A stretch of 64,000 nt of DNA from Bugula neritina (taxonomy: Eukaryota; Animalia; Bryozoa). The stretch spans positions 744,001 through 808,000 of the forward strand of contig OZ037766.1 in assembly GCA_964035545.1 (NCBI GenBank), written 5' to 3'. The notes beneath the pieces are model-generated. The model was given only the letters and a program-made list of their open reading frames with translations, was not told where the DNA came from and did no database searches. The first letter of the stretch is position 1. Every line of letters begins with the position of its first letter. Shown piece after piece: positions 8,701 through 50,851 of the stretch. The translations under genes were made by a program, and so were the position numbers.

Positions 8701-11021
8701 CTGTATATACTAACTAGTAGTTGAGGTAAGTTACTGTATATACTAACTAGTAGTTGAGGTAAGTTACTGTATATACTAACTAGTAGTTGAGGTAAGTTAC
8801 TGTATATACTACCTAGTAGTTGAAGTAAGTTACTGTATATACTAACTAATAGTTGAGGTAAGTTACTGTATATACTAACTAGTAGTTGAGGTAAGTTACT
8901 GTATATACTAACTAGTAGTTGAGGTAAGTTACTGTATATACTACCTAGTAGTTGAAGTAAGTTACTGTATATACTAACTAGTAGTTGAGGTACGTTACTC
9001 ACCGTTGGTTTGGGGCAGTTCTCAGCCCGATGTCCACTCTGGTCACAGTTGCGGCACTTGAGTGAGTGGTACCGCATCCTTTTCTTAGCGCCGTTACTCA
9101 GTCTACAGTCGGTGGGCAGAATGTCCCACCCTGAATCTAGAAAAAGAAAAACACCGAGAGATTTGAAATTACAGCTTGAGTATTGGTATGTAGAGAGCAC
9201 CTGTTCTAGCTAGTCTGACTTACATACAGATAAGTGTCACTCACCAGGCAGTGTAGAGAGCACCTGTTCTAGCTAGTCTGATTTACATACAGATAAGTGT
9301 CACTCACCAGGCAGTGTAGAGAGCACCTGTTCTAGTGAGCCATACTCATTGACATGTGACAGAGTGACCAAGGGCAGAGTGTCATCACCCAGGACACTGC
9401 TGTTGTGACTCATTATGCTGTCATGTCTCTGCCGTCCATGAGTTCTGATGTGGAGGTCAAGTTTGGAGTCAGTCAGCTGAGTGCCAGAATCCAGTCTGGC
9501 CCAGAAGGGCATCTCCTCTGAGAAGAGACAAACTTATACTCAAAACAACTTCTCAACACAACTGTCACAGTCCTACTCTGAATAACCTCATTGTAAGGAT
9601 GTGACAGAAGAGTGGGGAAACACTAAACAGTGATATGGGAACTTAGTCTACTCTACTTGGAGTTGTGTTCTCTATAAACAGAGTACAAGTAAGCATCCGT
9701 ATAAGTATAAGTATACCATCTGCAGTTTAACAGTGAAATGTTACACAGAGCTGGTAATACATCATATATTGATTATATTCACACAAGACTATGAGTTGGT
9801 GGAGTATACAGCTAGTCACAGACTCTACAACATGTACATAACAAGCGTAGGTAGCACAGTAGGTTGTCCGGAGACTCCCCCCTCAGTGCACACAGGTCCT
9901 CAGTCTTACCCTCTTCATCCTCAGGTATCGGGCTATTGGCTACTTCCTCCTCTCTAGAGCCTTGCGTCTCAGTCACTGTCACAACCTCTCTAATCACCTG
10001 GCAAGTAGAATCCCTGACACACTTCACTTTATGCAGTATTGAAATATTCTCATACACATCAGCTGTCATCTACATACTGCCTTAGGAATTCATGAGCACA
10101 CAGTATTGTTTTATAATGAATTTTGTGTGCGGAATTGATTTGGGAATTCTGATCGCTTGAGGATGACATTTCACTTTGACTTTACCTCTACTATAAAACT
10201 TATACTACTTAGTGGCAACCTCCATGACATAACCTTTACCTGCTGCACTGCACAGCTCAACACTGAGCTGGCTTGAAATGTTTAAACTTTGAACTCTAAG
10301 TCAGCTCAGCGACAGAGTGTCGTGCCTCACCTGAATATCTGAGTCATCCCCGTCTGATGACAGCAGAATGGGTGAAGTTGAGGTCACAGGGTCAGCAGAG
10401 GGTTCACCAGGAGAATTGTCCTGCAAGAGAAACGCTGCCGGTAAAATATTTGAACTGGACATTGTAGGAAGTTACTTCCACCTGCACCTCCCTCATGTGA
10501 TACTATAGAAAGTTTCCCTTTGTAATAAGGAGTTGTGTGTCCCAACAGTCAATTGAGAAAGCCCTCACTGAGGAGTTAATACAAACAGCCATATTTACAG
10601 AGAAATATAATCTTAAGGGAAACACTTACTAGTAGAAGTGACCTTGACTTTAGCGACGAGTCGGGAGTTGTCAGTGACTGGTACAAGTCTACATTCTCAG
10701 CTTCACCTGAATCAAGACACAATTATACCTGTTAGCTTCTGATACACAAGACTATTTACCAGCTAGTTAATTACCTGCTAGTTAATTACCTGCTAGTTAT
10801 TTACCTGCTAGTTATTTACCTGCTAGTTATTTACCTGCTAGTTATTTACCTGCTAGTTATTTACCTGCTAGCTATTTAACTGCTAGTTATTTACCTGCTA
10901 GTTATTCACCTGCTAGTTATTTACCTGCCAGCTCGTGGTATATTTGACTGTAGAGGAAATTTTCCTGCTCCAGTTTGTCATAAGCTGTCTCCTCGCTATC
11001 ACTCCACGAGTCTGACATCAT
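5747..11021 (-). CDS. ZCCHC7: Zinc finger CCHC domain protein 7 (Air1/2-like TRAMP subunit), multi-exon
   Basis: N-terminal MMSDSWSDSEE...ENFLYSQIYHE; serial zinc knuckles CRNCDQSGHRAENC, CQWCSASGHSTFRC, CHRCGSKGH; basic Lys-rich last exon (5747-6270). Internal exon boundaries approximate. Confidence 0.8.
6364..6759. repeat. 45-bp minisatellite, about 9 copies, ZCCHC7 last intron
   Basis: TATTACATAATACAGGTAGTAGAGGTTACTGAGAGTTGTTCAGAG repeated. Confidence 0.95.
7190..7650. repeat. 12-bp minisatellite (AGTATATTACA[C/G])
   Basis: Direct tandem copies filling an intron. Confidence 0.95.
8066..8998. repeat. 33-bp minisatellite, about 28 copies, filling ZCCHC7 intron 8058-9002
   Basis: AGTAGTTGAGGTAAGTTACTGTATATACTAACT repeated; explains the SIYSNLPQLLV repeat in the ORF track. 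Confidence 0.97.
10755..10930. repeat. 14-bp minisatellite (TTTACCTGCTAGTTA-like) overlapping a splice donor
   Basis: About 12 copies; on the minus strand each unit reads CTAGCAG|GTAAATAA. Confidence 0.9.
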
Positions 11022-16100: not shown

Positions 16101-19100
16101 TGAATAAAGGCCTGGCCTCACACTCGTGAGAATCACACGGAATCGTCTATTTGACACGAAAACACAATCGTACAATCAAATCTGAGGGAATTCAAATAAA
16201 ATGGTCTTCAGTGGGTGCACCCAACGAAGACAATGGACGAAAAAGCGAAATTAACAATAAGCACTATTCGATTAGTCAATAGAATTTTAGCAACAGTAAT
16301 TATTTCATTTCTACCACGTTTCTCTGTTTGGCAATTTTCAGCTGTTTGTATTTCGTGCAAGACTCATTCAAGGACTATTTATTATGTGTTTCGTCCGACG
16401 AGTGTGTGACTGGTCATAACGAGAGGATAACTCACGAAAATCTTCACATGAGTTTCGTGTGATTCTCACTAGCATGAGGCCAGGCCTTAAAGGCTAAATA
16501 TGAAAACACAGTGCTGTAACAGAGTAGAATGGGGTCTCACCCTGATGGCCAGGCCAAGGGGTATGACATAGGTCAGCCCCATACCCAGACCAAAACACAG
16601 GCCATACGTCAGCAGCAGGAGGTAGTAGCTGACCTTCACTGTGAAGGCCGTCAGGAACACGCTGATACTAAAACACACAGTGCTGATACTAAAACACACA
16701 GTGCTGACACTAAAACACACAATGCTGACACTAAAACACACAATGCTGACACTAAAACACACAATGCTGACACTAAAACACACAATGCTGACACTAAAAC
16801 ATACAATGCTGATACTAAAACATTCAACCTATTCTTCTATGAAATACAAAAGACTAACAGTTGAGTGGCAAGTATTTCAACAAAAAAAATTATTATTTCA
16901 GAATGAGTATTAAAATATTATGGCTCGCGGCCTAAGTAGAATTAGGGCTTTGCTGCTGAAACTAGGCTATATGTTATCAATTGAGAGCTGAGTGCATGTG
17001 TACTAGTACTAGTGTGGTGGCTCGTGGAGCTACCAGCAACACAATACGCAAGGTTGCGTATTGACCCGGAACAATGTATTAGCCAATTAACTAAGCTGTT
17101 TGATAAGTAATAGTAGCCGCTTCGCGCTACTAGCTCAGTTGAGGATAGTGCTGTAAATTAAATAGACGTGCGTATCATTACTGTTGTACCTTAAATTTTA
17201 TTATGTATTCTTGTATTAAAATATAACGATATCTACTCGACTTAACACGGTGAAGTTTCTCTAGTGATAAATAGACTCTCTTGGTGACACATCAACCCTA
17301 AATCTGAAAACTATAACAGTGGTGGCAGCGGTGGGATAGTGTACATTAAAGATGGAGACTGAAAATGCTAGAATGCAACCACCCCCAGTAGAAGGTGAGC
17401 GTAGAAATGCTGTTAATCCTGTAAATCGTGAGGCAGAAGAAGCTTATAGACATTGCTTGAAAGCTCCCACCTTTACTGGGTCGGAAGATGTCGAACAATT
17501 TATACAAGAATTTAGAGAGGTAATGGAGGTTGCTCAATGGCCGCATAGAGTGGCCCTCATTCAATTGCGGAGAGCGGTGACGGAGCAAGCCAAGCCGTAC
17601 GGAGTGGGAACGGACGTGGACGGCATACTGGCTGCGCTGCGGGCCCGTTTTGGCACCTCCGTCATAGACGCTAGGACCAAGCTGGAGAGATTGTGCCGCA
17701 CCCCGCGGACCTCGCTGCAGGAACATGCCGCGACGGTGAAGAAGCTGGCGCAGATTGCATATAGCGATCTGCCAGCACAACACCAAGAGCGTTACACCTA
17801 TGACGCCTTTGTCCAGTCCCTAAACGACCTGGGCCTAGACCATCACCTACGAGCTAAAGGGATAACCAGAATAGAGGATGCCCTGAAGGCTGGAGAAGCT
17901 TACCTGTTGGCTACCCAAATGCATCAGGCACAAAGGAACCCCCCAGTAGTCGGAGTCAGCGCTGCCAGGGCTACGACAGGCTCCGAAGCCCTCCCGCTGG
18001 AAGCCGAAGTGGACCGCATGGTAGAGATGCTGGGACAATTGGTAACCATTCTGGCCAGTGCTGGCCCCGGTCAGGCATTACGGATGCCCCCAACGTCTGT
18101 GGGACAGGGCTGGAGTAGCGCTGATCAGGACCAGGGACCGAAAGGACGACCCCAATACCAGGGGGCGTTAAACTGTCACGGCCCGCGGACACACTCCCTC
18201 CCCGCGGGCCGCAACTAAAGGAGTATGGTGGGAAACGCCGTCGCCTGTCCGTACGGACACGACGGAACGCTCCACCCGAGTGGCAGGTACCACGCAGGAC
18301 TAGTAGGCCCGCACAACGGCCAAGTACCTTCTCCCTGCCACTCACTAACCGGTTTCACCGGTTACCTCGGGAAGAGGAGCCCGCCACTGAAATGGAGCCA
18401 GAAGGCCCAGTGGAGAGGCCCGAACCCCGCCGGCACCAACCTCGCCGCCGGAAGCCCCGTAAACCACGGGTGAAACCCCCGCCGTCCTGTCAACCCAGGA
18501 CAACACATGCGGGGGGGGTGAAAGTACAACCACATGGAGAGAGCTATTTCCTACCCGGAAAGGTGGCCGGCAATGCCGTCACTTTCCTGCTCGACTCCGG
18601 TTGTACTACCAACCTTCTCAGTCGTAGAGTCTTTGAGGCACTGCCCCGCCGGGACAGGGATAGAGTACGACCGTATACTGGAGAACATGGCACCCTGGCA
18701 GACGGGTCATGTATCCCCTTTTATGGTATTATCGAGCTCCCTGGGCGTGTCCGAGATCAGGCTGTACAGGAGACCTTTATCATAGGTCAACTGGAGGAAG
18801 ATGCTATCCTCGGCATGCCCTTCTTGAAGCAACACCAATGCCGAATCGACTTTAGTAAGTCGGTGGTGCTGATGGGCGGGCGAGAACTCGCCTGTGTGGA
18901 TAAGTTTGGGCGTCCTCTGGTGGGCGGTGTTCAGGTAGTTCGGAACTGCACCGTACCCGGACGCTCCAGAGCTACTATCCACTGCCGAGTGAACAGCAAC
19001 CGGATAGCCAGGCTCGGGGTCGTTGAAGGCGCGCACGAAAGGATCCAACTCGCCAGTAGTTTAAACCGACTAACTGAGCGAGGGGAGGTCTTAGTGCAGT

Positions 19101-22100
19101 GTGTCAACCCCTTTACTGAGCCCATTGAGCTCCCAGCTGGGTCAATGCTGGGCCGGTTCCACTCCGTCCAGGAAGAGGACGTGGGCCCGTCGCTGGGTGA
19201 CGCGACGGAGGCACCCCCTCGACACCCTATTCAGGGACGAGGGGCAGTCCCAACACATCTCCGGGAGTTATATGAAACAGCCAGTGGCGGCTGCGCGAGT
19301 AACAGAGAACGCCAAGCTATGGCTAAGTTACTACGCGACTACGGCGATGTGTTCAGCAGCGGAGAGCATGACGTGGGGCTGACTGGAATTGTCAGACACG
19401 AAATACCGCTGACTGCAGGGACAGCTCCTGTCCGGCAGCCCACACGCAGGCTGGGGCCGGAGAAAGAGAAGGAGGTTAGCCGACAAGTACGGGATCTTCT
19501 GGACCGGGGACTGATAGAGCCCGCCCATAGTGCGTGGAGCTCGCCAGTCGTACTGGTCCGGAAGAAAGACGGCAGTTGGCGGTTCTGTGTGGACTACCGC
19601 AAACTCAATAGCGTAACCATACAGGACGCCTACCCTCTACCTCGTATTGACGAGTCATTGGACGCCCTAGCCGGCAGCAAGTACTTCAGTACGTTAGACT
19701 TGCTAAGCGGCTATTGGCAGGTTCCTCTGAGTCCCGACGCCCAAGAGAAAGCGGCGTTTATCACACGGGACGGTTTGTGGAAGTGGAAGGTGCTGCCCTT
19801 CGGGCTAACCTCCGCCCCAGCCACCTTCCAGAGGCTGATGGAACAAGTCCTTAGCGGACTCCATTGGAAGACACTGCTGGTCTACCTCGATGATGTCATC
19901 GTAATCTCTCCAGACTTCGAGACACATGTCAGTCGTCTGCAGGAGGTTTTCGAGAGACTCCGAGGTGCCGGTCTCAAGCTCAAACCTTCCAAATGCGCTC
20001 TATTGCAGCCGGAGGTCAAGTACCTGGGGCACGTTGTCGGTCGAAACGGCGTGGCAACGGATCCCGAAAAGGTACGGGCGGTAGAAGACTGGGTCACCCC
20101 CCAAGACTTGACCGGACTCCGGGCTTTCTTGGGGCTGGTAGGGTATTACAGGCAATACATACCAGACTTTGCGGGCATAGCCCAGCCGTTAAACCGGCTC
20201 ACCGCAAAGGGAGTGACGTGGCAGTGGACCCCAGTCGAACAAGAAGCGTTCGACCGCCTCAAGGGTTGCCTACTAACGGCGCCCATCTTGGCCTACCCAG
20301 ACCCCACTCTGGAGTACATCCTAGACACGGACGCCAGTGACCAGAATGTTGGCGCCGTGCTGTCACAAGTGCAGGAAGGCCGAGAAGTAGTAGTAGCCTA
20401 CTACAGCAAGTCTCTCTCTCCCGCTGAACGAAATTACTGCACTACCCGCAAGGAGCTGCTGGCAGTAATCAAGTCAGTGAAGCACTTCAGACCATACCTA
20501 TATGGCAGGAAGTTCCGGCTGCGTACGGATCATGCCTCGCTGATCTGGTTGTGCAAGAGAGCAGAGCCCTCTAGTCAGGTCGCCCGGTGGCTCGAAATCC
20601 TAGCTGAATTCTCATACCGGATCGAACATCGACCGGGCAAGAGACACAGCAATGCGGATGGGTTGAGTCGCCGACCTGACGGAGGTTGCAAACAGTGTCT
20701 CAACATCGAGAGGAGGGATGGAGGTCCCCCGCGATGCGAGTTGGAGACGCTGGCTCATCACGGAGCACCGTTTGACTGGGATCAAGGTCAACTCAGGCAG
20801 AGAGTTGATGAGTCCCCGGAGGATGTGCAAAACCTCCGCGCCAACCCTGTACTGGCCGGTAATGTTCGAGAGCTGAAGAAGCTCCAAGAAGAACTGCCTG
20901 GAGTCGTGGCAGACATATACCGGGCCAAACGGGAAGGGCGACGACCCAGCGAGGAACGCATAAGACAGGGATGCGCCGAGTTCCGGCTATACTGTCAGCG
21001 TTGGGACTCGCTGCGGATCGGGCAGGATGGGTTGCTAACCATCTCTCTAGCTGCCAGCGGCAGACACCCGGAAAGGAAGAGGGTAGTCTGCCCCACAGCC
21101 ATCCGCCGTGAGTTGATTTGGGATACTCACAAGCAGGCCCACGCAGGGGTCAAGCGAGTGATATCCAAATTACGACTCCGGTGGTATTGGCCGCAGATGG
21201 AGCGTGACGTCCGGCTCAGAGTCAAACAGTGTGAGATCTGCCAGGCCAGTAAGCATAGCCGCCCCCCTGGTGAAGCAGGACGGCGGAGGCTATATGCTGG
21301 CAGGCCCTGGCAAGTAGTCGCTGTAGACCTGGTCGGACCCATGCCCCTGACCCCCAGAGGCAATAATTGGATCCTAGTACTAACCGACCACTTTACTAGG
21401 TGGGCGGATGCTCTGGCCATCCCAGATGCATCAGCCCCAACAGTGGCCAGGGCACTAGACCAACATGTATTCTGTTATTTTGGGCTTCCCGAACAGATAC
21501 ACTCTGATCAAGGCGCTCAATTCCAGTCTCAACTGATGAGCGACCTTTGTCACCTCTGGGGAGTAAATCAGAGCAGGACCACCCCCTACCACCCTCAAGG
21601 TAATGGGGTGGTGGAGCGCAACAACCGAATGCTAGGTGATGCGCTCCGGAGTCTCCTCCTTGGACGAGGTCAAGAGGAATGGGATACGGTGTTGCCACAG
21701 GTCATGCGGGCATACCGTAGCACCCCACACACCAGTACTGGTGAGACCCCAAACCTCTTGATGCTCGGGAGAGAGACTCGTGTCCCTGACCATCTCACCT
21801 ATCACGTTCCCGAGCAAGACAACTCGGTTCACGAGTATGCCAGTGAACTAGTGGAACGGATGAAGGCCGCACACGATATACTGCGTCAACAGCAGTGGAA
21901 GGTGCGGCACGAAGATTCCGATGAACCCCCGCTCTATCAAAGGGGAGATAAGGTGTGGATGGTCAATTACCGTAGGCGCCGCGGACAGGCTGATAAGCTG
22001 AAGCCTAAGTTCGTAGGCCCCTACGTGGTCGTCGAGGCTATGCCCAATCATACGTACAAGATTGAGCGCTCAGGACAGGTGTCTATCCAGAATGAGTCTC

Positions 22101-25100
22101 GCTTGAAACCGTATTGGGCTAGCCCTGACGGAGTGGGAGAAGCCCCCCCGTTGTTAGAGCCCAGGAGGCAGACAACGACGCGCGGGCGACGGCGGCGTGG
22201 ACCTGAATACGAAGTGGTCATACCGCGGGAGGAAAACTTGGTGAGAGAGGAGCGGCAGCTTTTGTCAACAGAAGCGTGTCCGCCGCCGCCAAGTCTAATT
22301 CCATCACTTCCAGAAACCGAGCCGGTTCCGGAAGTGCAAACCCCCACGGAGGGAGGGGCTCCATCCGGAGAACAAGAAGAGGTGACCACTAACGGTGAAG
22401 TAGAGACGCCATTAGAGGCTCCTACTAACGAACCGGCAAGCGTGTCATCCAGAGAACAAGAAGAGGTGACCACTAACGGTGAAGTAGAGACGCCATTAGA
22501 GGCCCCTACTAACGAACCGGCAAGCGTGTCACCCCCCCTAGAAAGGGGACAGCGTACGAGGAAGCCCCCACCGTATTTGAAAGACTTCATATGTGACTGC
22601 ATTAGAAGCGGCGCACATGAAAGTCTAGGGGAAAACCGTACGATGAAATGTTGGAGTTGTGAACCCCACGCAAATATCAACTTTTGCGAGGGCGGAATAG
22701 TGGGAGGAATTAATGCGCGTAAAGCAAATAGTTCCGACCTCGTGCCTCAGAAACGATGCTCAGCCTTTTCTTATGCTGACATCGCCAAAGGCAGACGTAT
22801 CCCACAACCAGCTCCAACCTTACCAAGAACGTTGAGTATGGACATTAATACCGAGTTCTCAGGTAAGCCAGTATAAGTCTTGTATTCCTATTCATGGAAA
22901 CGGGCTCGATGCCAGTAAATTCTGAACTAATTCAGCAGATTGAATCAGAATTACTGGGAACCACGTTTCATGTGAATGACGATGAAGACACTGTAATGGC
23001 CGACGGTCTTTTAGACCTGGAGCTAGACACTGTTCTTGGTCAGTCCACACATGATTCATCAGTTCCTCGAGTGCATTCCAAAAGCTGTGACTCTCAGGCT
23101 AGCAACGGTCGACAGTCACTAGAATTATGTTGTAAAGATCCACCGCGATCTAACAATAATTCTACTTTTGTAGACACACTCGCGCCCGTCTCTACGGGCA
23201 TGCCTTCTCTAGAGATGGCGTGGGACCCAGAGCCGGCCCCAACAACTCCTACCACCAGGCAACTGCCACCTCAGTTGGAAGCAACCTCCAACTGGATTAC
23301 CCCTGCCACAGAGAGGGAAATCAGGACCCATCAAGGAGGTGAGAGTAATCGTGAATGCAACCTCTGCCAGCAGCGATTCACAACCCACCGCAGACTAAAG
23401 GTGCACTTGCCGCAGCATTACATCACCACTTTCTGCCCTTGCGGCGAATATAGCTATAACCGTGATTATCTGCTGCGGCACCAACGTACTATGCAGTGCT
23501 ATCAAGGACATGTCTATGAAGTAGACGAATCATCCTATCCTGCCTTTCTCAACGCCATTAAACCACTCATCACTGACTCAGCTCGGCTATCTCGCCTGGA
23601 GCAAGGCTTCCCTTCCCCGCGACCTATCACCTCTGGAGCTACAGATAAACCTACCCAGTCTGCTAACTCTCCACCTCACAGTCCTATACGCATGCCGCAT
23701 ACCTTTCCTCGTGTCGTACTACAGAGAGTAGACACAAATGCGTACACACTCCCTCCTCCTATTCCATCCTCAGAGCGGAAACGACACAGGCAACCAACTT
23801 CCTCTCGCTCGTCCCCCTGGGCCCGTAACCTACGTGAGGTAGAAGCTAGGGCGCATGACTTGGAGCAAGAAGTCTACAGGCTGGCCCCACGAATACAAGC
23901 AGCCTCCAGTGAACTCAAATACTTACAGGAGTCGATTAAACGCATGAAGCGTGCGGCCCGCAATTAACTCGAGTCTACCTACCACTCCCTACTACTCATT
24001 CCCCTACCTCTCTGTGGCATTCCCTACCGTAATGGTGGCACGTACTCTATATGTAGATAGGACCTTCTCTTGCTTATTACTTAGTGCACGATATATATAC
24101 CTGTATATTTTTTTTACCAGTTGTTGTTTTTTTTTTATATATATTATATACTTTTATATTGTTCTCTTACCCCCCAACGAAGTATACGTTTTTTTTTGTG
24201 AATCTTATTTTATCAGAAAGTGGGCTTTCTGCTGGAGGGGGCAGTGTGGTGGCTCGTGGAGCTACCAGCAACACAATACGCAAGGTTGCGTATTGACCCG
24301 GAACAATGTATTAGCCAATTAACTAAGCTGTTTGATAAGTAATAGTAGCCGCTTCGCGCTACTAGCTCAGTTGAGGATAGTGCTGTAAATTAAATAGACG
24401 TGCGTATCATTACTGTTGTACCTTAAATTTTATTATGTATTCTTGTATTAAAATATAACGATATCTACTCGACTTAACACGGTGAAGTTTCTCTAGTGAT
24501 AAATAGACTCTCTTGGTGACACATCAACCCTAAATCTGAAAACTATAACACTAGCATATGCTATCAGTCTCAAAAAGCACAGTGAAGACACGGTAAGCAG
24601 CTAAGGACTAGAAAGACACCAGCTGCATGAGGATGGCTTCGTATCAATCGATAAGAATAATAAATTACTAACTCATCCTCAACTCTCTCTATAAAATGGC
24701 ATAATTAGGTAACATAAATCAATTATAATCACTATTTCACACCAGCCATGGGAATATTACAATACCTCAATTCACAGTATAATATTAGGCAATAGTACTA
24801 TAGACTAAATACAGCCCAGTAGGATATTCAGATACATCTTTATACTCTGTATACTCTACTCTGTATATTCTGTATATTCTACTCTGTATATTCTACTCTG
24901 TATACTCTACTCTGTATACCCTACTCTGTATACTCTACTCTCTATACTCTCTACTCTGTATACTCTGTATACTCTACTCTGTACACTCTACTCTGTATAT
25001 TCTACTCTGTATACTCTACTCTGTATACTCTGTATACTCTGTATACTCTACTCTGTATACTCTGTATACTCTACTCTGTATACTATACTCTGTATACTAT

Positions 25101-26141: not shown

Positions 26142-27248
26142 ACTCTCAGACTATAGTTTGAAGTTTCAGCAGCTGTAAGCAAGTTCTAGCTAAAATAGGA
26201 AAATATAATATAGTGTGGTTAAAATAGTAAGAGTTGAATGTGTTACATATGAATTGTATTTATGATAATGACATGTACATAATAAAACCTTAGTGGGATT
26301 ATGGTTATTCCAGATATGAAATTAATCGGAAACAATTTAGTTCAAAAATGTCCAAGCAGTAAACCTAGAACCCCAGACTATTATCACAGAAAGGCAGAAT
26401 ATTGCCAGCTGATTTACCATATAGGTACACCCTGTGGATTAACTTTACTCAAAATGAAGTGTTTGAGAAGGCTCAACTGTCCCTAGGGTTCGAACCCAAT
26501 TAAATGGAAAATATTTAAAATTATTTTACATCTCACTACATAGAAAAATGATAACTATATTATATGCAGGCAGAATACATATTACTTTACTATTAATATT
26601 AGAAGATTAGCATTGGATTTTACCCAAACTATTATTATTCTTAGCTGGGATGTAATTACAACTATTGTTATAGTTTTCAGATTTAGGGTTGATGTGTCAC
26701 CAAGAGAGTCTATTTATCACTAGAGAAACTTCACCGTGTTAAGTCGAGTAGATATCGTTATATTTTAATACAAGAATACATAATAAAATTTAAGGTACAA
26801 CAGTAATGATACGCACGTCTATTTAATTTACAGCACTATCCTCAACTGAGCTAGTAGCGCGAAGCGGCTACTATTACTTATCAAACAGCTTAGTTAATTG
26901 GCTAATACATTGTTCCGGGTCAATACGCAACCTTGCGTATTGTGTTGCTGGTAGCTCCACGAGCCACCACACTGCCCCCTCCAGCAGAAAGCCCACTTTC
27001 TGATAAAATAAGATTCACAAAAAAAAACGTATACTTCGTTGGGGGGTAAGAGAACAATATAAAAGTATATAATATATATAAAAAAAAAACAACAACTGGT
27101 AAAAAAAATATACAGGTATATATATCGTGCACTAAGTAATAAGCAAGAGAAGGTCCTATCTACATATAGAGTACGTGCCACCATTACGGTAGGGAATGCC
27201 ACAGAGAGGTAGGGGAATGAGTAGTAGGGAGTGGTAGGTAGACTCGAG

Positions 27249-28322
27249 TTAATTGCGGGCCGCACGCTTCATGCGTTTAATCGACTCCTGTAAGTATTTG
27301 AGTTCACTGGAGGCTGCTTGTATTCGTGGGGCCAGCCTGTAGACTTCTTGCTCCAAGTCATGCGCCCTAGCTTCTACCTCACGTAGGTTACGGGCCCAGG
27401 GGGACGAGCGAGAGGAAGTTGGTTGCCTGTGTCGTTTCCGCTCTGAGGATGGAATAGGAGGAGGGAGTGTGTACGCATTTGTGTCTACTCTCTGTAGTAC
27501 GACACGAGGAAAGGTATGCGGCATGCGTATAGGACTGTGAGGTGGAGAGTTAGCAGACTGGGTAGGTTTATCTGTAGCTCCAGAGGTGATAGGTCGCGGG
27601 GAAGGGAAGCCTTGCTCCAGGCGAGATAGCCGAGCTGAGTCAGTGATGAGTGGTTTAATGGCGTTGAGAAAGGCAGGATAGGATGATTCGTCTACTTCAT
27701 AGACATGTCCTTGATAGCACTGCATAGTACGTTGGTGCCGCAGCAGATAATCACGGTTATAGCTATATTCGCCGCAAGGGCAGAAAGTGGTGATGTAATG
27801 CTGCGGCAAGTGCACCTTTAGTCTGCGGTGGGTTGTGAATCGCTGCTGGCAGAGGTTGCATTCACGATTACTCTCACCTCCTTGATGGGTCCTGATTTCC
27901 CTCTCTGTGGCAGGGGTAATCCAGTTGGAGGTTGCTTCCAACTGAGGTGGCAGTTGCCTGGTGGTAGGAGTTGTTGGGGCCGGCTCTGGGTCCCACGCCA
28001 TCTCTAGAGAAGGCATGCCCGTAGAGACGGGCGCGAGTGTGTCTACAAAAGTAGAATTATTGTTAGATCGCGGTGGATCTTTACAACATAATTCTAGTGA
28101 CTGTCGACCGTTGCTAGCCTGAGAGTCACAGCTTTTGGAATGCACTCGAGGAACTGATGAATCATGTGTGGACTGACCAAGAACAGTGTCTAGCTCCAGG
28201 TCTAAAAGACCGTCGGCCATTACAGTGTCTTCATCGTCATTCACATGAAACGTGGTTCCCAGTAATTCTGATTCAATCTGCTGAATTAGTTCAGAATTTA
28301 CTGGCATCGAGCCCGTTTCCAT
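27249..28322 (-). CDS. ORF3 zinc-finger/coiled-coil protein, element B
   Basis: Translation identical to 22894-23967. Confidence 0.9.
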   Translation of the reverse strand: METGSMPVNSELIQQIESELLGTTFHVNDDEDTVMADGLLDLELDTVLGQSTHDSSVPRVHSKSCDSQASNGRQSLELCCKDPPRSNNNSTFVDTLAPVSTGMPSLEMAWDPEPAPTTPTTRQLPPQLEATSNWITPATEREIRTHQGGESNRECNLCQQRFTTHRRLKVHLPQHYITTFCPCGEYSYNRDYLLRHQRTMQCYQGHVYEVDESSYPAFLNAIKPLITDSARLSRLEQGFPSPRPITSGATDKPTQSANSPPHSPIRMPHTFPRVVLQRVDTNAYTLPPPIPSSERKRHRQPTSSRSSPWARNLREVEARAHDLEQEVYRLAPRIQAASSELKYLQESIKRMKRAARN

Positions 28323-28339
28323 GAATAGGAATACAAGAC

Positions 28340-31300
28340 TTATACTGGCTTACCTGAGAACTCGGTATTAATGTCCATACTCAACGTTCTTGGTAAGGTT
28401 GGAGCTGGTTGTGGGATACGTCTGCCTTTGGCGATGTCAGCATAAGAAAAGGCTGAGCATCGTTTCTGAGGCACGAGGTCGGAACTATTTGCTTTACGCG
28501 CATTAATTCCTCCCACTATTCCGCCCTCGCAAAAGTTGATATTTGCGTGGGGTTCACAACTCCAACATTTCATCGTACGGTTTTCCCCTAGACTTTCATG
28601 TGCGCCGCTTCTAATGCAGTCACATATGAAGTCTTTCAAATACGGTGGGGGCTTCCTCGTACGCTGTCCCCTTTCTAGGGGGGGTGACACGCTTGCCGGT
28701 TCGTTAGTAGGGGCCTCTAATGGCGTCTCTACTTCACCGTTAGTGGTCACCTCTTCTTGTTCTCTGGATGACACGCTTGCCGGTTCGTTAGTAGGAGCCT
28801 CTAATGGCGTCTCTACTTCACCGTTAGTGGTCACCTCTTCTTGTTCTCCGGATGGAGCCCCTCCCTCCGTGGGGGTTTGCACTTCCGGAACCGGCTCGGT
28901 TTCTGGAAGTGATGGAATTAGACTTGGCGGCGGCGGACACGCTTCTGTTGACAAAAGCTGCCGCTCCTCTCTCACCAAGTTTTCCTCCCGCGGTATGACC
29001 ACTTCGTATTCAGGTCCACGCCGCCGTCGCCCGCGCGTCGTTGTCTGCCTCCTGGGCTCTAACAACGGGGGGGCTTCTCCCACTCCGTCAGGGCTAGCCC
29101 AATACGGTTTCAAGCGAGACTCATTCTGGATAGACACCTGTCCTGAGCGCTCAATCTTGTACGTATGATTGGGCATAGCCTCGACGACCACGTAGGGGCC
29201 TACGAACTTAGGCTTCAGCTTATCAGCCTGTCCGCGGCGCCTACGGTAATTGACCATCCACACCTTATCTCCCCTTTGATAGAGCGGGGGTTCATCGGAA
29301 TCTTCGTGCCGCACCTTCCACTGCTGTTGACGCAGTATATCGTGTGCGGCCTTCATCCGTTCCACTAGTTCACTGGCATACTCGTGAACCGAGTTGTCTT
29401 GCTCGGGAACGTGATAGGTGAGATGGTCAGGGACACGAGTCTCTCTCCCGAGCATCAAGAGGTTTGGGGTCTCACCAGTACTGGTGTGTGGGGTGCTACG
29501 GTATGCCCGCATGACCTGTGGCAACACCGTATCCCATTCCTCTTGACCTCGTCCAAGGAGGAGACTCCGGAGCGCATCACCTAGCATTCGGTTGTTGCGC
29601 TCCACCACCCCATTACCTTGAGGGTGGTAGGGGGTGGTCCTGCTCTGATTTACTCCCCAGAGGTGACAAAGGTCGCTCATCAGTTGAGACTGGAATTGAG
29701 CGCCTTGATCAGAGTGTATCTGTTCGGGAAGCCCAAAATAACAGAATACATGTTGGTCTAGTGCCCTGGCCACTGTTGGGGCTGATGCATCTGGGATGGC
29801 CAGAGCATCCGCCCACCTAGTAAAGTGGTCGGTTAGTACTAGGATCCAATTATTGCCTCTGGGGGTCAGGGGCATGGGTCCGACCAGGTCTACAGCGACT
29901 ACTTGCCAGGGCCTGCCAGCATATAGCCTCCGCCGTCCTGCTTCACCAGGGGGGCGGCTATGCTTACTGGCCTGGCAGATCTCACACTGTTTGACTCTGA
30001 GCCGGACGTCACGCTCCATCTGCGGCCAATACCACCGGAGTCGTAATTTGGATATCACTCGCTTGACCCCTGCGTGGGCCTGCTTGTGAGTATCCCAAAT
30101 CAACTCACGGCGGATGGCTGTGGGGCAGACTACCCTCTTCCTTTCCGGGTGTCTGCCGCTGGCAGCTAGAGAGATGGTTAGCAACCCATCCTGCCCGATC
30201 CGCAGCGAGTCCCAACGCTGACAGTATAGCCGGAACTCGGCGCATCCCTGTCTTATGCGTTCCTCGCTGGGTCGTCGCCCTTCCCGTTTGGCCCGGTATA
30301 TGTCTGCCACGACTCCAGGCAGTTCTTCTTGGAGCTTCTTCAGCTCTCGAACATTACCGGCCAGTACAGGGTTGGCGCGGAGGTTTTGCACATCCTCCGG
30401 GGACTCATCAACTCTCTGCCTGAGTTGACCTTGATCCCAGTCAAACGGTGCTCCGTGATGAGCCAGCGTCTCCAACTCGCATCGCGGGGGACCTCCATCC
30501 CTCCTCTCGATGTTGAGACACTGTTTGCAACCTCCGTCAGGTCGGCGACTCAACCCATCCGCATTGCTGTGTCTCTTGCCCGGTCGATGTTCGATCCGGT
30601 ATGAGAATTCAGCTAGGATTTCGAGCCACCGGGCGACCTGACTAGAGGGCTCTGCTCTCTTGCACAACCAGATCAGCGAGGCATGATCCGTACGCAGCCG
30701 GAACTTCCTGCCATATAGGTATGGTCTGAAGTGCTTCACTGACTTGATTACTGCCAGCAGCTCCTTGCGGGTAGTGCAGTAATTTCGTTCAGCGGGAGAG
30801 AGAGACTTGCTGTAGTAGGCTACTACTACTTCTCGGCCTTCCTGCACTTGTGACAGCACGGCGCCAACATTCTGGTCACTGGCGTCCGTGTCTAGGATGT
30901 ACTCCAGAGTGGGGTCTGGGTAGGCCAAGATGGGCGCCGTTAGTAGGCAACCCTTGAGGCGGTCGAACGCTTCTTGTTCGACTGGGGTCCACTGCCACGT
31001 CACTCCCTTTGCGGTGAGCCGGTTTAACGGCTGGGCTATGCCCGCAAAGTCTGGTATGTATTGCCTGTAATACCCTACCAGCCCCAAGAAAGCCCGGAGT
31101 CCGGTCAAGTCTTGGGGGGTGACCCAGTCTTCTACCGCCCGTACCTTTTCGGGATCCGTTGCCACGCCGTTTCGACCGACAACGTGCCCCAGGTACTTGA
31201 CCTCCGGCTGCAATAGAGCGCATTTGGAAGGTTTGAGCTTGAGACCGGCACCTCGGAGTCTCTCGAAAACCTCCTGCAGACGACTGACATGTGTCTCGAA

Positions 31301-32824
31301 GTCTGGAGAGATTACGATGACATCATCGAGGTAGACCAGCAGTGTCTTCCAATGGAGTCCGCTAAGGACTTGTTCCATCAGCCTCTGGAAGGTGGCTGGG
31401 GCGGAGGTTAGCCCGAAGGGCAGCACCTTCCACTTCCACAAACCGTCCCGTGTGATAAACGCCGCTTTCTCTTGGGCGTCGGGACTCAGAGGAACCTGCC
31501 AATAGCCGCTTAGCAAGTCTAACGTACTGAAGTACTTGCTGCCGGCTAGGGCGTCCAATGACTCGTCAATACGAGGTAGAGGGTAGGCGTCCTGTATGGT
31601 TACGCTATTGAGTTTGCGGTAGTCCACACAGAACCGCCAACTGCCGTCTTTCTTCCGGACCAGTACGACTGGCGAGCTCCACGCACTATGGGCGGGCTCT
31701 ATCAGTCCCCGGTCCAGAAGATCCCGTACTTGTCGGCTAACCTCCTTCTCTTTCTCCGGCCCCAGCCTGCGTGTGGGCTGCCGGACAGGAGCTGTCCCTG
31801 CAGTCAGCGGTATTTCGTGTCTGACAATTCCAGTCAGCCCCACGTCATGCTCTCCGCTGCTGAACACATCGCCGTAGTCGCGTAGTAACTTAGCCATAGC
31901 TTGGCGTTCTCTGTTACTCGCGCAGCCGCCACTGGCTGTTTCATATAACTCCCGGAGATGTGTTGGGACTGCCCCTCGTCCCTGAATAGGGTGTCGAGGG
32001 GGTGCCTCCGTCGCGTCACCCAGCGACGGGCCCACGTCCTCTTCCTGGACGGAGTGGAACCGGCCCAGCATTGACCCAGCTGGGAGCTCAATGGGCTCAG
32101 TAAAGGGGTTGACACACTGCACTAAGACCTCCCCTCGCTCAGTTAGTCGGTTTAAACTACTGGCGAGTTGGATCCTTTCGTGCGCGCCTTCAACGACCCC
32201 GAGCCTGGCTATCCGGTTGCTGTTCACTCGGCAGTGGATAGTAGCTCTGGAGCGTCCGGGTACGGTGCAGTTCCGAACTACCTGAACACCGCCCACCAGA
32301 GGACGCCCAAACTTATCCACACAGGCGAGTTCTCGCCCGCCCATCAGCACCACCGACTTACTAAAGTCGATTCGGCATTGGTGTTGCTTCAAGAAGGGCA
32401 TGCCGAGGATAGCATCTTCCTCCAGTTGACCTATGATAAAGGTCTCCTGTACAGCCTGATCTCGGACACGCCCAGGGAGCTCGATAATACCATAAAAGGG
32501 GATACATGACCCGTCTGCCAGGGTGCCATGTTCTCCAGTATACGGTCGTACTCTATCCCTGTCCCGGCGGGGCAGTGCCTCAAAGACTCTACGACTGAGA
32601 AGGTTGGTAGTACAACCGGAGTCGAGCAGGAAAGTGACGGCATTGCCGGCCACCTTTCCGGGTAGGAAATAGCTCTCTCCATGTGGTTGTACTTTCACCC
32701 CCCCCGCATGTGTTGTCCTGGGTTGACAGGACGGCGGGGGTTTCACCCGTGGTTTACGGGGCTTCCGGCGGCGAGGTTGGTGCCGGCGGGGTTCGGGCCT
32801 CTCCACTGGGCCTTCTGGCTCCAT
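28340..32824 (-). CDS. pol: Pol polyprotein, element B
   Basis: Translation identical to copy A. Confidence 0.98.
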   Translation of the reverse strand: MEPEGPVERPEPRRHQPRRRKPRKPRVKPPPSCQPRTTHAGGVKVQPHGESYFLPGKVAGNAVTFLLDSGCTTNLLSRRVFEALPRRDRDRVRPYTGEHGTLADGSCIPFYGIIELPGRVRDQAVQETFIIGQLEEDAILGMPFLKQHQCRIDFSKSVVLMGGRELACVDKFGRPLVGGVQVVRNCTVPGRSRATIHCRVNSNRIARLGVVEGAHERIQLASSLNRLTERGEVLVQCVNPFTEPIELPAGSMLGRFHSVQEEDVGPSLGDATEAPPRHPIQGRGAVPTHLRELYETASGGCASNRERQAMAKLLRDYGDVFSSGEHDVGLTGIVRHEIPLTAGTAPVRQPTRRLGPEKEKEVSRQVRDLLDRGLIEPAHSAWSSPVVLVRKKDGSWRFCVDYRKLNSVTIQDAYPLPRIDESLDALAGSKYFSTLDLLSGYWQVPLSPDAQEKAAFITRDGLWKWKVLPFGLTSAPATFQRLMEQVLSGLHWKTLLVYLDDVIVISPDFETHVSRLQEVFERLRGAGLKLKPSKCALLQPEVKYLGHVVGRNGVATDPEKVRAVEDWVTPQDLTGLRAFLGLVGYYRQYIPDFAGIAQPLNRLTAKGVTWQWTPVEQEAFDRLKGCLLTAPILAYPDPTLEYILDTDASDQNVGAVLSQVQEGREVVVAYYSKSLSPAERNYCTTRKELLAVIKSVKHFRPYLYGRKFRLRTDHASLIWLCKRAEPSSQVARWLEILAEFSYRIEHRPGKRHSNADGLSRRPDGGCKQCLNIERRDGGPPRCELETLAHHGAPFDWDQGQLRQRVDESPEDVQNLRANPVLAGNVRELKKLQEELPGVVADIYRAKREGRRPSEERIRQGCAEFRLYCQRWDSLRIGQDGLLTISLAASGRHPERKRVVCPTAIRRELIWDTHKQAHAGVKRVISKLRLRWYWPQMERDVRLRVKQCEICQASKHSRPPGEAGRRRLYAGRPWQVVAVDLVGPMPLTPRGNNWILVLTDHFTRWADALAIPDASAPTVARALDQHVFCYFGLPEQIHSDQGAQFQSQLMSDLCHLWGVNQSRTTPYHPQGNGVVERNNRMLGDALRSLLLGRGQEEWDTVLPQVMRAYRSTPHTSTGETPNLLMLGRETRVPDHLTYHVPEQDNSVHEYASELVERMKAAHDILRQQQWKVRHEDSDEPPLYQRGDKVWMVNYRRRRGQADKLKPKFVGPYVVVEAMPNHTYKIERSGQVSIQNESRLKPYWASPDGVGEAPPLLEPRRQTTTRGRRRRGPEYEVVIPREENLVREERQLLSTEACPPPPSLIPSLPETEPVPEVQTPTEGGAPSGEQEEVTTNGEVETPLEAPTNEPASVSSREQEEVTTNGEVETPLEAPTNEPASVSPPLERGQRTRKPPPYLKDFICDCIRSGAHESLGENRTMKCWSCEPHANINFCEGGIVGGINARKANSSDLVPQKRCSAFSYADIAKGRRIPQPAPTLPRTLSMDINTEFSGKPV

Positions 32825-32997
32825 TTCAGTGGCGGGCTCCTCTTCCCGAGGTAACCGGTGAAACCGGTTAGTGAGTGGCAGGGAGAAGGTACTTGGCCGT
32901 TGTGCGGGCCTACTAGTCCTGCGTGGTACCTGCCACTCGGGTGGAGCGTTCCGTCGTGTCCGTACGGACAGGCGACGGCGTTTCCCACCATACTCCT

Positions 32998-33864
32998 TTA
33001 GTTGCGGCCCGCGGGGAGGGAGTGTGTCCGCGGGCCGTGACAGTTTAACGCCCCCTGGTATTGGGGTCGTCCTTTCGGTCCCTGGTCCTGATCAGCGCTA
33101 CTCCAGCCCTGTCCCACAGACGTTGGGGGCATCCGTAATGCCTGACCGGGGCCAGCACTGGCCAGAATGGTTACCAATTGTCCCAGCATCTCTACCATGC
33201 GGTCCACTTCGGCTTCCAGCGGGAGGGCTTCGGAGCCTGTCGTAGCCCTGGCAGCGCTGACTCCGACTACTGGGGGGTTCCTTTGTGCCTGATGCATTTG
33301 GGTAGCCAACAGGTAAGCTTCTCCAGCCTTCAGGGCATCCTCTATTCTGGTTATCCCTTTAGCTCGTAGGTGATGGTCTAGGCCCAGGTCGTTTAGGGAC
33401 TGGACAAAGGCGTCATAGGTGTAACGCTCTTGGTGTTGTGCTGGCAGATCGCTATATGCAATCTGCGCCAGCTTCTTCACCGTCGCGGCATGTTCCTGCA
33501 GCGAGGTCCGCGGGGTGCGGCACAATCTCTCCAGCTTGGTCCTAGCGTCTATGACGGAGGTGCCAAAACGGGCCCGCAGCGCAGCCAGTATGCCGTCCAC
33601 GTCCGTTCCCACTCCGTACGGCTTGGCTTGCTCCGTCACCGCTCTCCGCAATTGAATGAGGGCCACTCTATGCGGCCATTGAGCAACCTCCATTACCTCT
33701 CTAAATTCTTGTATAAATTGTTCGACATCTTCCGACCCAGTAAAGGTGGGAGCTTTCAAGCAATGTCTATAAGCTTCTTCTGCCTCACGATTTACAGGAT
33801 TAACAGCATTTCTACGCTCACCTTCTACTGGGGGTGGTTGCATTCTAGCATTTTCAGTCTCCAT
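32998..33864 (-). CDS. gag: Gag, element B
   Basis: Translation identical to copy A. Confidence 0.9.
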   Translation of the reverse strand: METENARMQPPPVEGERRNAVNPVNREAEEAYRHCLKAPTFTGSEDVEQFIQEFREVMEVAQWPHRVALIQLRRAVTEQAKPYGVGTDVDGILAALRARFGTSVIDARTKLERLCRTPRTSLQEHAATVKKLAQIAYSDLPAQHQERYTYDAFVQSLNDLGLDHHLRAKGITRIEDALKAGEAYLLATQMHQAQRNPPVVGVSAARATTGSEALPLEAEVDRMVEMLGQLVTILASAGPGQALRMPPTSVGQGWSSADQDQGPKGRPQYQGALNCHGPRTHSLPAGRN

Positions 33865-36264
33865 CTTTAATGTACACTATCCCACCGCTGCCACCACTGT
33901 TATAGTTTTCAGATTTAGGGTTGATGTGTCACCAAGAGAGTCTATTTATCACTAGAGAAACTTCACCGTGTTAAGTCGAGTAGATATCGTTATATTTTAA
34001 TACAAGAATACATAATAAAATTTAAGGTACAACAGTAATGATACGCACGTCTATTTAATTTACAGCACTATCCTCAACTGAGCTAGTAGCGCGAAGCGGC
34101 TACTATTACTTATCAAACAGCTTAGTTAATTGGCTAATACATTGTTCCGGGTCAATACGCAACCTTGCGTATTGTGTTGCTGGTAGCTCCACGAGCCACC
34201 ACACTATTACTTATTTACTATAACAATAATGTATAAACTAACATCTTGATTAGTTGTTCTAAATCCTAATTCTTTGAGTTTCTTGCTTTTGTAAGCACTT
34301 TGGTTTTTAAATTACAAATGATAAATCTGTTTACTATTAGGTATGTATGATATTAGACATAGTAGCCTACCGCATTAACTATAACTACAACTATAATATT
34401 AACATAATATGTTGATGTATAAGAAACTGAACAGTGGTGACATCAGAATAGCTGATCAAAAATAAAATAAGCTTTCATCTCTCTATTACTATTAGCATTA
34501 CAAATTTGATTTACTTTTAAAATTAATGACTGAAAGGAACAAATGTTAATGTAAACATCTTAATGTGAGTGAATACTGAACAGGTACTTACCCTTAACAT
34601 TGGCTTTGTAATTTGTAGTTATGCCAATACTTTAACTGGTAGATGCTTCTGTATGCAATTTGAATTAAAACGCAAACTGAAACTGCACAATCACTCTGAC
34701 AAATCGCACTGAGTATGACACTGACAGTCACAGCGTGAGTGAGTGCAGTAGATTGAACGGCAACAACTATGATTTATTAGTAACACTATAGGCATAAGTT
34801 GTTGAATAAGTAAAACAATTTAAATTACTCATTTAGTCGAAATTTTGAAAATCAAAATGAATAACTATAACTACATGTATAAGTCATTTAATTTTATGAT
34901 TTAAGTGCACTGTACTGGTAATTCACTAATTGCTACTAGCCAAAGGTAACTACAGGCTATAAGTATAAGTATATATGATATGAGTACATCATAATCGCAG
35001 ACTAAAAGTAAATCTACAATATTTGTAAAATACTGGTAAACTCAACACACATTCGTCATAACTCATAGTAATCAATTGCTACATTTAGTGCAAATGTGCA
35101 TTCTGGAACAGCTGTGTAAACAGCTAGCCAGGGGGTGAAAGGTTAAAAGGGTAAACAAACCATACATATGACTATTCTAATACCAATAAGCTGAAAATCG
35201 CTAGAAGTAGCACCAAGTTAGGGGTGACTAATTACATACTTTGTATAAACTATAGAGCATTAACAACCTCGAGACCGCCACCAACACTGCACTAAATGAC
35301 CACCATCTTTACGCTGCTTCGAGCGATTTCGTAACATAGTCGTGTACATAATTGTGATTGCCTCCTAAGTTGTTCAACTGCAACTGCTAAGTAATAGTTT
35401 AAGTAAAAGAACACACTGGTCAACTGTAGGGAAAAACTAGATACATGGGCATATAACTCATAATTAGTTTTTAAATTATTTTTCAGGCTACAAAAAATGA
35501 AGAAGATTTAGTATTAATACATGCATGCATCATGTCGTTACAAGTGCTTATTTCCTAAGTTTATTGTAACAGAGCAACTGTTGAACTGGTGACTGAAATC
35601 CACTAGTCTAATACTATACAGGCACTAAGTAGGATATACTAGATTCTAGATGAATGAGAAACCATAAACTACTCATCGAATGGTTGACATTTGCAAACTT
35701 GTGGAAATTATTGGTGAATTTTCTTAAATATAACTATATTATGGACATTAACAAAATATAACAAATTTTCAATTGAAATAATAATAATAATAGTGGAATC
35801 AACATGAATTAATATAAATTTCAACAAATCCCTTTTCCTTAATGTTGACAAAAACAGAGAGAATCAAAATAAAATATTGTTTAGTAACTTCAGCATATCG
35901 TGAATAAGAACTGATATGAATTATAAAGTCGCTAGTTTACTAGGTAGTTTAAGTATTCAGTAATCTCGAATTGATTAACCACACTTGTATAACAAACAGT
36001 GAATATAAATCCTACTTAGCATACTTAACAATGTGTTAATATATCTCAAGGACAGACAGTAGATGAAAATAACTCATAACTCTATTTTGCACAAAAATTA
36101 TTAAACAAAAATATATTACACTACAAAAAAGTAATAACAAAAAATATCTAGTAGAGAGAAAGGAATGCTTACGGAATCATCGAGAATATTAGATATAATG
36201 TTATAGAGTTATTGTAGCACCAGAAAAATATTGCTTTTACAACTTTTTCATTTATTTCTTCTAC

Positions 36265-49400: not shown

Positions 49401-50851
49401 TACAGAGAGAATCAGCTGGTAGTCTATAATCTAGTTGACAATAAAATACAGAAGTTCCCACTTCCTGAGATGAAGTTCCCTCTACCTGTATGCATTCTCC
49501 CAGACTCAACTCTCCTCATAGGAGACCACACTATACATGGTAAAGTGAGAAGATATAAAGTGGAGAACACAACTCTCACTCTGATGTGGGAATTCCCTCA
49601 CATCTCAGGACCAACTGGTATTTCCTTTGATCCAACATCTGAACTGATTCACATCTGTACATGGGAAGGACCTCTCCTCATCCTCTCACTTGAAGGTAAA
49701 TACTCTGTTTATTATAGTAAGTTTAGTTACTCTAATACAGGGCTGTTCAACAGGCGGCCCCTGGGCTGGTTGTGACCCCCAGCCTACATTTATGTGACCC
49801 TCTAAGACACAACACATAACATTGTTTTGCACATGTATATGAATTAAAGTGAAAACATCGCTTTTAAACGGCTTATTTATACACATGCCACAAAACATGC
49901 AGCCCGCAGTAACTATTAGGACTTCATTGTGTAATGAGTCATATAGGAGTTTGGAATAAAGTTAAAGTTTACAATGGCTCCCCCTACTGGAATATTCCAT
50001 TTCAGTGGTCCTCTCTCTGAAATGGTTAGACACCCTTGCTTTATTGCAATTTTGTGATATTTTATTCTAGTAATATCACAGGCTATATCATGATATTGTT
50101 AGTAAGTACTTGGCTCTGAGGCTAATTTATAATAATTAGTATTTAATGGAAGTGTTTTACAGTAATTTTAGAGGTGCTCAGTCTAACAACTGTACAGACT
50201 GCCAGCTACACATGAGTTATGAGTTGTAGTTTGACTTCAGTCTAGTGCTGCTATTGTTTTGGTCATCAGATAATTTAAAGATAAATAATTTGATACTTTT
50301 TGACTGCCATTACTGAGACTATTGTAATTTGATAATGGCTGGTAGAGCAGTGTTTGCTGGTGGGACTCCGGTGGCTGTGGTTGGTTCTTGTCAAGTATTT
50401 AATATGTGATAATGTTGGAGTATATCTTATATTATGTAATTATTTATAATTATATTAGCTGAGCACTAAGTTTGTATGTTGAGTTTCTTCTCTCCATGTT
50501 GTCATTTATTATGAAGTAAAGAGTAGAGCAGCTGAGTGAATTATTCAATACTGACTGGTAGAAGTGCAGCTGCAGGTATATTATTGAACATATTTCAGTT
50601 ACTATATTATACTAGAAAGTAGAAACTGTGTGTAGTTGTGTCAGCTGTTGTGATGTCACTGTAGTCTGTCTGTTTGTCTCAAACCGATACAATCTGGTGT
50701 TATTCTATTTACAGGTGAACTGATGGTAAGAATTCCCAGAGAAAGTCTTGGTGTGAGTGACTTGGTGTGGGACATTGCTGTGTATAACAGAGACAAGGTG
50801 TTTCTAGCATGTAGAGATGATGGACTGAGGAGATACACAATAAAATACTAA
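46490..50851 (+). CDS. TRIM-like E3 ligase: RING, B-box1, B-box2, coiled coil, beta-propeller (NHL-like); exons 46490-46671, 46892-47072, 47347-47548, 47728-47933, 48365-48644, 49000-49695, 50715-50851
   Basis: CGYC...PRTLPCLHVYCMRC...CAYC RING; CDVC...FCVES..LCEQH; CEHH...CSHC...CIRC; helical segment; YIVDY, PTGISFD propeller blades; junctions in phase. Confidence 0.88.
49738..50038. mobile_element. Old hAT (Charlie-like) MITE in TRIM intron
   Basis: Ends CAGGGCTGTTCAAC / GTTAGACACCCTTG; degenerate 8-bp flanks CTCTAATA / CTTTATTG. Confidence 0.55.

Follow-up and report, generated by a model that had tools for sequence, protein, structure and literature searches.

Introduction

The chromoshadow dimer of HP1 grips its ligands as a beta-strand, of which the side chains at positions −2, 0 and +2 become buried (PMC12126490). 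In the accounts given by the studies cited here, the ligand of KAP1 is of the PxVxL type (Pro486-Val488-Leu490; PMC12126490) and that of KDM2A of the LxVxL type (PMC5388433), the latter being equal to PxVxL as an HP1 ligand (PMC5388433, PMC7465937). A study of fly HACs describes a near-invariant basic residue at +4, a hydrophobic residue at +5 in about 80% of cases, and a location of these ligands in disordered regions (PMC12526061). It also reports that a bare pentamer of the PxVxL type matches more than half of the fly proteome (PMC12526061), which means that the pentamer alone is weak evidence. A proven ligand may depart from the fly signature, as illustrated by the peptide of human CAF-1 p150, which carries an acidic residue at +4 (bioRxiv 2024.11.04.621823).

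Several kinds of accessory proteins encoded by mobile elements and viruses are relevant for comparison. Non-env ORF3s of LTR retrotransposons are already known (PMC5408684, PMC7264820, PMC8220671, PMC13524379, PMC10309623). Anti-silencing proteins encoded by transposable elements are known in plants (PMC6719617); according to a 2019 review, few such proteins encoded by transposons are known, and the protein example it gives is from plants (PMC6719617). Mimicry of HP1 ligands by a viral accessory protein has been described for the Agnoprotein of JC polyomavirus (bioRxiv 2024.11.04.621823).

Here we examine a 64,000-nucleotide stretch of the genome of the bryozoan Bugula neritina (GCA_964035545.1, contig OZ037766.1, positions 744,001 to 808,000), further called the window, which contains a Ty3/gypsy retrotransposon with a third open reading frame (ORF3). 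An initial annotation had pointed to an HP1-type motif in ORF3. According to our main reading, the conserved motif likely binds the HP1 groove and docks a probably dimeric zinc-finger regulator on chromatin, which likely keeps the element expressed; we put the probability of this reading at roughly 0.55.

The retrotransposon and its copies

The window is rich in repeats, and an intact element of 7.5 kb occurs in it as two copies in inverted orientation. Copy A (17013–24550, forward strand) has LTRs of 306 bp (17013–17318 and 24245–24550) with 0 mismatches between them, and is flanked by the target duplication CTAG. Its LTRs, primer-binding site, polypurine tract, target duplication and gene order (protease, reverse transcriptase, RNase H, integrase) are those of a Ty3/gypsy element. 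The primer-binding site (17320–17337, +) is presumably of the tRNA-Leu type. A gag-like ORF1 (17352–18218, +) was assigned from its position, and no significant Pfam match was found for it. It is overlapped in a different frame by pol (18125–22876, +), which encodes protease, reverse transcriptase, RNase H and integrase, and in which a chromodomain was not found. ORF3 (22894–23967, +), encoding 357 amino acids, is located between pol and the 3′ LTR.

Copy B (26666–34203, reverse strand) is identical to copy A, with 0 mismatches in an ungapped comparison, whereas its 4-bp target duplication is CTAT. Because the duplications differ and mismatches are absent, A and B are two separate recent insertions; with respect to the motif (27483–27512, − in copy B) they count as one data point. 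The copies are 2.1 kb apart and both target duplications start with CTA on the forward strand. Such identical neighbouring insertions suggest very recent activity or local targeting.

A diverged relative, element C, is present on the reverse strand near the end of the window. Its ORF3 (62739–64000, −) is cut by the window end, and since the frame is split in two near 63608–63653, element C is either a damaged copy or the result of an assembly error. The finger domains of C and A are 47% identical. The 3′ LTR of element C (62185–62532, −) carries six 11-bp palindromes of the type CCGA-N3-TCGG at a pitch of 15–16 bp (62391–62480), and a seventh is located at 63720–63730 within ORF3, where the encoded peptide recurs in nine homologues. 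Seven such palindromes in element C compare with 0.14 expected. Repeated palindromes are a site type that fits a dimer, and they are candidate binding sites for ORF3. The LTRs of A and B contain a perfect 10+2+10 palindrome (22 bp, 17042–17063), of which the sequence is unrelated to that of the element C palindromes.

Some further features were recorded in the window. The Pro/Glu-rich tail of pol in copy A contains a tandem duplication of 84 bp (22362–22534, +). A 458-codon open frame (7833–9209, −) has zinc knuckles at both ends and a frame-keeping 33-bp minisatellite inside. Another open frame of 265 codons (48978–49775, +) gave only a weak match to MRJP (propeller; E 0.15) and is likely a host exon.

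Anatomy of the ORF3 protein

The N-terminal region of ORF3 (22894–23073, +) is acidic-hydrophobic, with a net charge of −12 over 60 amino acids. An acidic-hydrophobic island in this disordered region, the second conserved island of the protein besides the motif, is common to the A- and C-type clades and resembles an activation domain. It is followed by a double zinc-finger domain (residues about 121–245; 23254–23628, +) that is composed of a C2H2-like finger, a C2HC-like finger and helices. The first finger is recognized as C2H2-like through weak Pfam and SALL4-type matches, and a second Cys/His cluster is found beyond it. The motif FPRVVLQRVD (residues 271–280; 23704–23733, +; central Val codon 23713–23715) is positioned after the fingers, and is itself followed by the basic cluster RKRHR (23776–23790, +), a candidate nuclear localisation signal with similar clusters in the linkers of homologues. 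The protein ends in a predicted long helix that is coiled-coil-like (residues 308–356; 23815–23961, +), and ORF3 is probably dimeric.

An AlphaFold2 prediction, based on a 42-row alignment, returned a confident domain at about 121–245, a disordered linker at 262–300 and the long helix at 308–356. In this monomer model the linker residues almost all have pLDDT values below 50, those at 262–287 included, and are detached from the finger domain. An env-type reading of ORF3 was ruled out: no transmembrane segment was found (maximal 19-residue hydropathy 0.63) and the protein is therefore not env-like, fingers and a soluble helix being predicted instead. Solved structures resembling ORF3 were not found at E≤0.001: one structure search brought up weak C2H2 fingers only, and another matched the C-terminal helix only (Z≤5.5). 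The clusters retrieved from the Atlas were either without a name or of a generic C2H2 kind, and no Pfam family above cut-off was found that belongs to the double-finger family itself. A contig from an RNA run (X2, depth 2.55) covers the motif, and does not count as evidence of transcription.

Taken together, the fingers, the basic cluster, the coiled coil and the acidic N-terminus would fit a nuclear transcription regulator. We estimate that there is about an even chance that ORF3 is a nuclear protein that binds DNA of the element's own LTR.

Conservation of the motif

The translations given earlier for the motif in copy A and for PLRVMLTRV in element C (62988–63014, −) were both confirmed. 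The ungapped register in which the two had been compared is correct as well, with Pro or Leu at −2, Val at 0 and Leu at +2; BLAST and MAFFT misalign Pro with Pro through an inserted gap. The initial annotation further placed the motif in a Pro/Ser-rich linker, which holds for A and not for C, of which the linker is Ala/Pro/Glu-rich.

That the motif stands as an island in a linker that is otherwise unalignable is borne out by an 8-mer scan, in which all 8-mers of the A linker were compared with 19 C-type linkers, and all those of the C linker with 25 A-type linkers. The motif is the strongest cross-clade stretch, with peaks over shuffles (in BLOSUM units) of +10.1 (sd 0.9) for RVVLQRVD and +11.3 (sd 0.6) for RVMLTRVG. 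The best linker 8-mer outside the island reached +2.9 and corresponds to the basic cluster.

The homologues used for further comparison came from searches in which query A gave 59 matches, query C gave 25 and a profile gave 349, of which the best 150 were listed. The full-length queries contained the motif, which may have biased the searches towards motif carriers, and the rows of alignment A2 were chosen from sequences already inspected. Many of the homologous gene calls are truncated or carry frameshifts, and many homologues look decayed. In 72 rows the end of the domain was intact and was followed by 60 or more residues. Those among them that reached the coiled coil were kept, giving a set of 45 frame-intact linkers; the motif is visible in many of the 27 rows that were left out. 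The pattern [PLC]xVx[LIVM] occurs in 42 of the 45 linkers as compared to 5.9±2.4 in shuffles, and the strict form [PL]xVxL in 35. When near rows with at least 40 downstream residues are considered, the strict form is present in 44 out of 69, against 6.5 in shuffles. The shuffle controls disregard common descent: at a 60% cut in domain identity, the 45 rows and two added ones represent six lineages, with the motif in four, so that 42/45 equals about 4/6 lineages.

Such small numbers of independent lineages, together with the decayed appearance of many homologues, could be taken to mean that the island is neutral, or else that it is constrained as nucleic acid. Neutrality is difficult to reconcile with the persistence of the island across clades with 47% domain identity and linkers that do not align otherwise. 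The motif residues that A and C have in common show silent codon differences (CGT/CGG, CTA/CTG, AGA/AGG, GTA/GTC), which implies that the constraint acts on the protein and argues against a nucleic-acid function. This explanation is largely refuted already and deserves hardly any credence. In run X1, none of the seven variants listed in 23620–23830 falls within codons −2 to +6, and five of the seven read as silent, the numbers being small. Judged from these comparisons, the motif is real and selected.

Fit to the HP1 ligand code

To compare the motif with the known ligands, residue positions were scored after anchoring by similarity and not by regular expression. Position −2 is Pro in 27 and Leu in 17 of the 45 linkers, position 0 is Val in 42 (Val or Ile in 43), and +2 is Leu, Val or Ile in 43, while +3 varies freely. 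A basic residue (Arg or Lys) is found at +4 in 37 linkers, and Ile or Val at +5 in 36, with an acidic residue at +5 in none. The exchange of Pro for Leu at −2 next to a fixed Val parallels the difference between the two established kinds of ligand, PxVxL and LxVxL. The motif shows the absence of acidic residues at −1, +1 and +5 and the basic residue at +4 that are expected of an HP1 ligand, and it is conserved within a predicted disordered region.

The published HAC core (−2 to +5) is present in 35 of the 45 linkers as compared to 2.7 in shuffles, and both A and C pass. When 24 N-terminal disordered regions from these proteins were examined for the core with Lys or Arg at +4, none contained it. 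A chance level is indicated by the control ORFs gag and pol, which hold one core match each. The full fly pattern (−7 to +6) is passed by only 13 of the 45, this consensus being fly-derived. Element C passes it, whereas in element A the Thr at −4 and the Phe at −3 depart from it, and all A-type rows except one fail the full pattern. The three to six basic residues that the code proposes for −4 to +4 are reached by only two of 42 motifs, with three each. The A motif has P-x-V-V-L-Q in common with the p150 peptide of human CAF-1, as given for that ligand in bioRxiv 2024.11.04.621823. On balance, it is more probable than not that the motif is an HP1 chromoshadow ligand.

The frequent failure of the full fly consensus is also what one would expect if the island were a beta-strand ligand of another partner, such as another host groove, Gag, integrase or ORF3 itself, with a coincidental likeness to HP1 ligands. 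Strands with alternating hydrophobic residues are frequent among short motifs, and ORF3 could then perhaps be a factor in RNA export or particle formation like CERV, an extra LTR-retrotransposon protein described as able to act in RNA export (PMC10309623). Consensus patterns for PP1 (RVxF), acidic-flanked SUMO SIM and CtBP ligands gave 0 of 45 each, and that for LC8 (TQT) 2 of 45, and the monomer model leaves the strand undocked on the fingers. We regard this explanation as very unlikely.

The island also resembles a destruction box of the APC/C, which would time the turnover of ORF3 to the cell cycle, either alone or overlapping an HP1 box. The pattern of such a box is RxxLxx[LIVM]. It occurs in 26 of the 45 linkers, A and C included, against 2.7 expected. 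The consensus, as described in PMC3690534, has a Pro directly before the Arg, as is the case in A-type rows. However, the Val after the Arg is among the most fixed residues (42/45), yet bulky residues are unfavourable at P2 and P5 in the structure of the box (PMC3690534). Moreover, the box is anchored on its Arg and Leu (PMC3690534), and the anchoring Leu is replaced by Val or Ile in seven frame-intact rows that retain the HP1 pattern (P0070, P0071, P0076, P0083, P0085, P0087 and P0108). We consider a destruction box, alone or together with an HP1 box, improbable, and HP1 binding is the preferred reading of the island.

Near and distant relatives

The double-finger family comprises 349 representatives at E≤0.001, some of which are generic finger proteins. 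When the profile was restricted to the finger domain, a near-complete domain was detected in 126 of 214 proteins, 87 near and 39 far. Among 20 proteins that were looked up, three clusters bear a species name, and the ORF3 relatives named in this way are from Watersipora subatra and Bugula neritina only. A quick tree of 70 of the 126 rows, after removal of redundancy, is poorly resolved and serves as a sketch. No loci related to the element were found in viral or metagenome contigs. Direct genomic context was available for the three elements A, B and C; for P0211 it is given indirectly by a retropepsin fusion.

The proposal of an HP1 ligand had been tied to the presence of the motif in most homologues. 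This holds for the near family, whereas among distant members the strict form [PL]xVxL was found downstream of the fingers in 0 of 30, against 2.5 in shuffles. Across both flanks, the HAC core showed no enrichment in the distant family (9/43 vs 5.9 expected). The motif is missing at its usual place in the nested P0122 group and in P0092 as well, which indicates that it is dispensable for the family. Within 80 amino acids upstream of the fingers, the published core with a basic +4 is present in 6 of 38 distant members as compared to 1.4 expected (1 in 1000 shuffles), in a range that was set after looking; without 12 pre-inspected rows this becomes 2 of 26 against 0.7, which is not significant. 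A further search for new distant members yielded three sequences, all of them already known. A possible relocation of the motif to this upstream position is a lead only.

Two groups of relatives have an unusual architecture. P0084 and P0216 (XP_067940963-4, Watersipora subatra) are two isoforms of an annotated gene with tandem finger domains and a C-terminal coiled coil. In P0084, each of the two finger-domain copies is followed by a matching motif, the second of which fits the full pattern. This gene is possibly a domesticated ORF3. In P0211 and P0214, a retropepsin and the ORF3 finger domain form an in-frame fusion, and a match to reverse transcriptase or integrase is absent; these may perhaps be non-autonomous derivatives. 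Through the retropepsin fusion of P0211, at least one member of the distant family is linked to Gypsy elements.

Possible function of ORF3

The initial annotation had left self-silencing, counter-silencing and chromatin targeting side by side as possible consequences of HP1 binding, and the choice among them is one that rests on anatomy. In the mechanism that we propose, the motif in the disordered linker would lie in the groove that the chromoshadow dimer of host HP1 forms, and the zinc fingers would locate the element's own LTR. The HP1 box could then keep ORF3 on silenced, HP1-coated copies, where it would compete with and displace host co-repressors of the PxVxL type, and the acidic N-terminus would bring in activators, so that the element stays expressed. 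The whole chain, up to counter-silencing or activation as opposed to self-silencing, is a tentative reading that we hold to be less likely than not.

The same motif evidence would also support a protein in which HP1 binding serves self-silencing or a brake on copy number, with LTR-bound fingers recruiting HP1, as if a KRAB-ZFP and KAP1 were combined in one protein. Precedent can be found in the description of KDM2A, a zinc-finger protein that brings HP1 to unmethylated chromatin via LxVxL (PMC5388433), and self-control of transposable elements is described as common (PMC6719617). On the other hand, ORF3 retains the acidic-hydrophobic N-terminal island, which appears typical of an activator, and the family looks recently active, with two identical insertions. 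We therefore consider self-silencing unlikely, and ORF3 is more likely to sustain expression of the element than to silence it.

Comparison with known systems

A literature search did not retrieve a zinc-finger ORF3 or a retrotransposon-encoded PxVxL protein, with most subscription journals and repeat catalogues outside its scope; Repbase-type catalogues may already contain these elements. Like the GDSL, DEDDy and CC ORF3s of bdelloids, the additional ORFs of plant elements and CERV of Cer1, some of which are nuclear or coiled-coil proteins (PMC5408684, PMC7264820, PMC10309623), the gene described here is an extra one between pol and the 3′ LTR. In the descriptions consulted, none of these non-env ORF3s is a double zinc-finger protein encoded on the sense strand and equipped with an HP1 box. 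Neither the bdelloid (PMC5408684) nor the plant (PMC7264820) paper uses the word 'zinc' in its main text.

With the HP1 box of KAP1/TRIM28, CAF-1 p150, KDM2A and the Drosophila HACs, as these are described (PMC12126490, PMC5388433, PMC12526061), the ORF3 motif has in common the hydrophobic residues at −2, 0 and +2, the central Val, the basic residue at +4 and the hydrophobic one at +5. The Arg at −1 is found in KAP1 as well (PMC12126490), and like other HP1 ligands the motif is located in predicted disorder beside a chromatin- or DNA-binding domain. In contrast to the ligands named, it is encoded by a mobile element, has few basic flanking residues and is a predicted ligand; A-type motifs further differ from Drosophila HACs at −4, where they carry a Thr or Ser and where the published fly consensus admits neither (PMC12526061).

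The Agnoprotein of JC polyomavirus is, as ORF3 may be, a small accessory protein of a parasite that mimics PxVxL, binds the HP1 chromoshadow dimer and can oligomerise (bioRxiv 10.1101/2024.11.04.621823), the binding of ORF3 being a prediction. It belongs to a DNA virus, has a degenerate ASVKV sequence and an H3K9 mimic, and is without zinc fingers in the description given; unlike what we propose for ORF3, it acts on nuclear mechanics and not on gene expression (bioRxiv 10.1101/2024.11.04.621823). If HP1 docking of ORF3 is true, a single valine would offer a direct and mutable handle on the relation between an animal transposon and heterochromatin, regardless of whether the element evades silencing or brings it about in its own copies.

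VANC21 and VANC6 of the Arabidopsis VANDAL elements are accessory proteins proposed to unsilence their own family through repeated cis motifs (PMC6719617), and the palindrome in the LTR of element C is likewise repeated. The VANC proteins come from plant DNA transposons and act on DNA methylation, and no domain in common with ORF3 was seen in what is described of them (PMC6719617), the anti-silencing role of ORF3 being a proposal. It is conceivable, and as a whole rather doubtful, that this Gypsy family encodes a sequence-specific mimic of HP1 partners that would bind as a dimer to palindromes in its own LTR and de-heterochromatinise its own copies. The HP1 box would then be a movable unit, which precedes the fingers in certain distant members and persists in a bryozoan gene that may be domesticated. 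Such a protein would be an animal counterpart of plant VANC.
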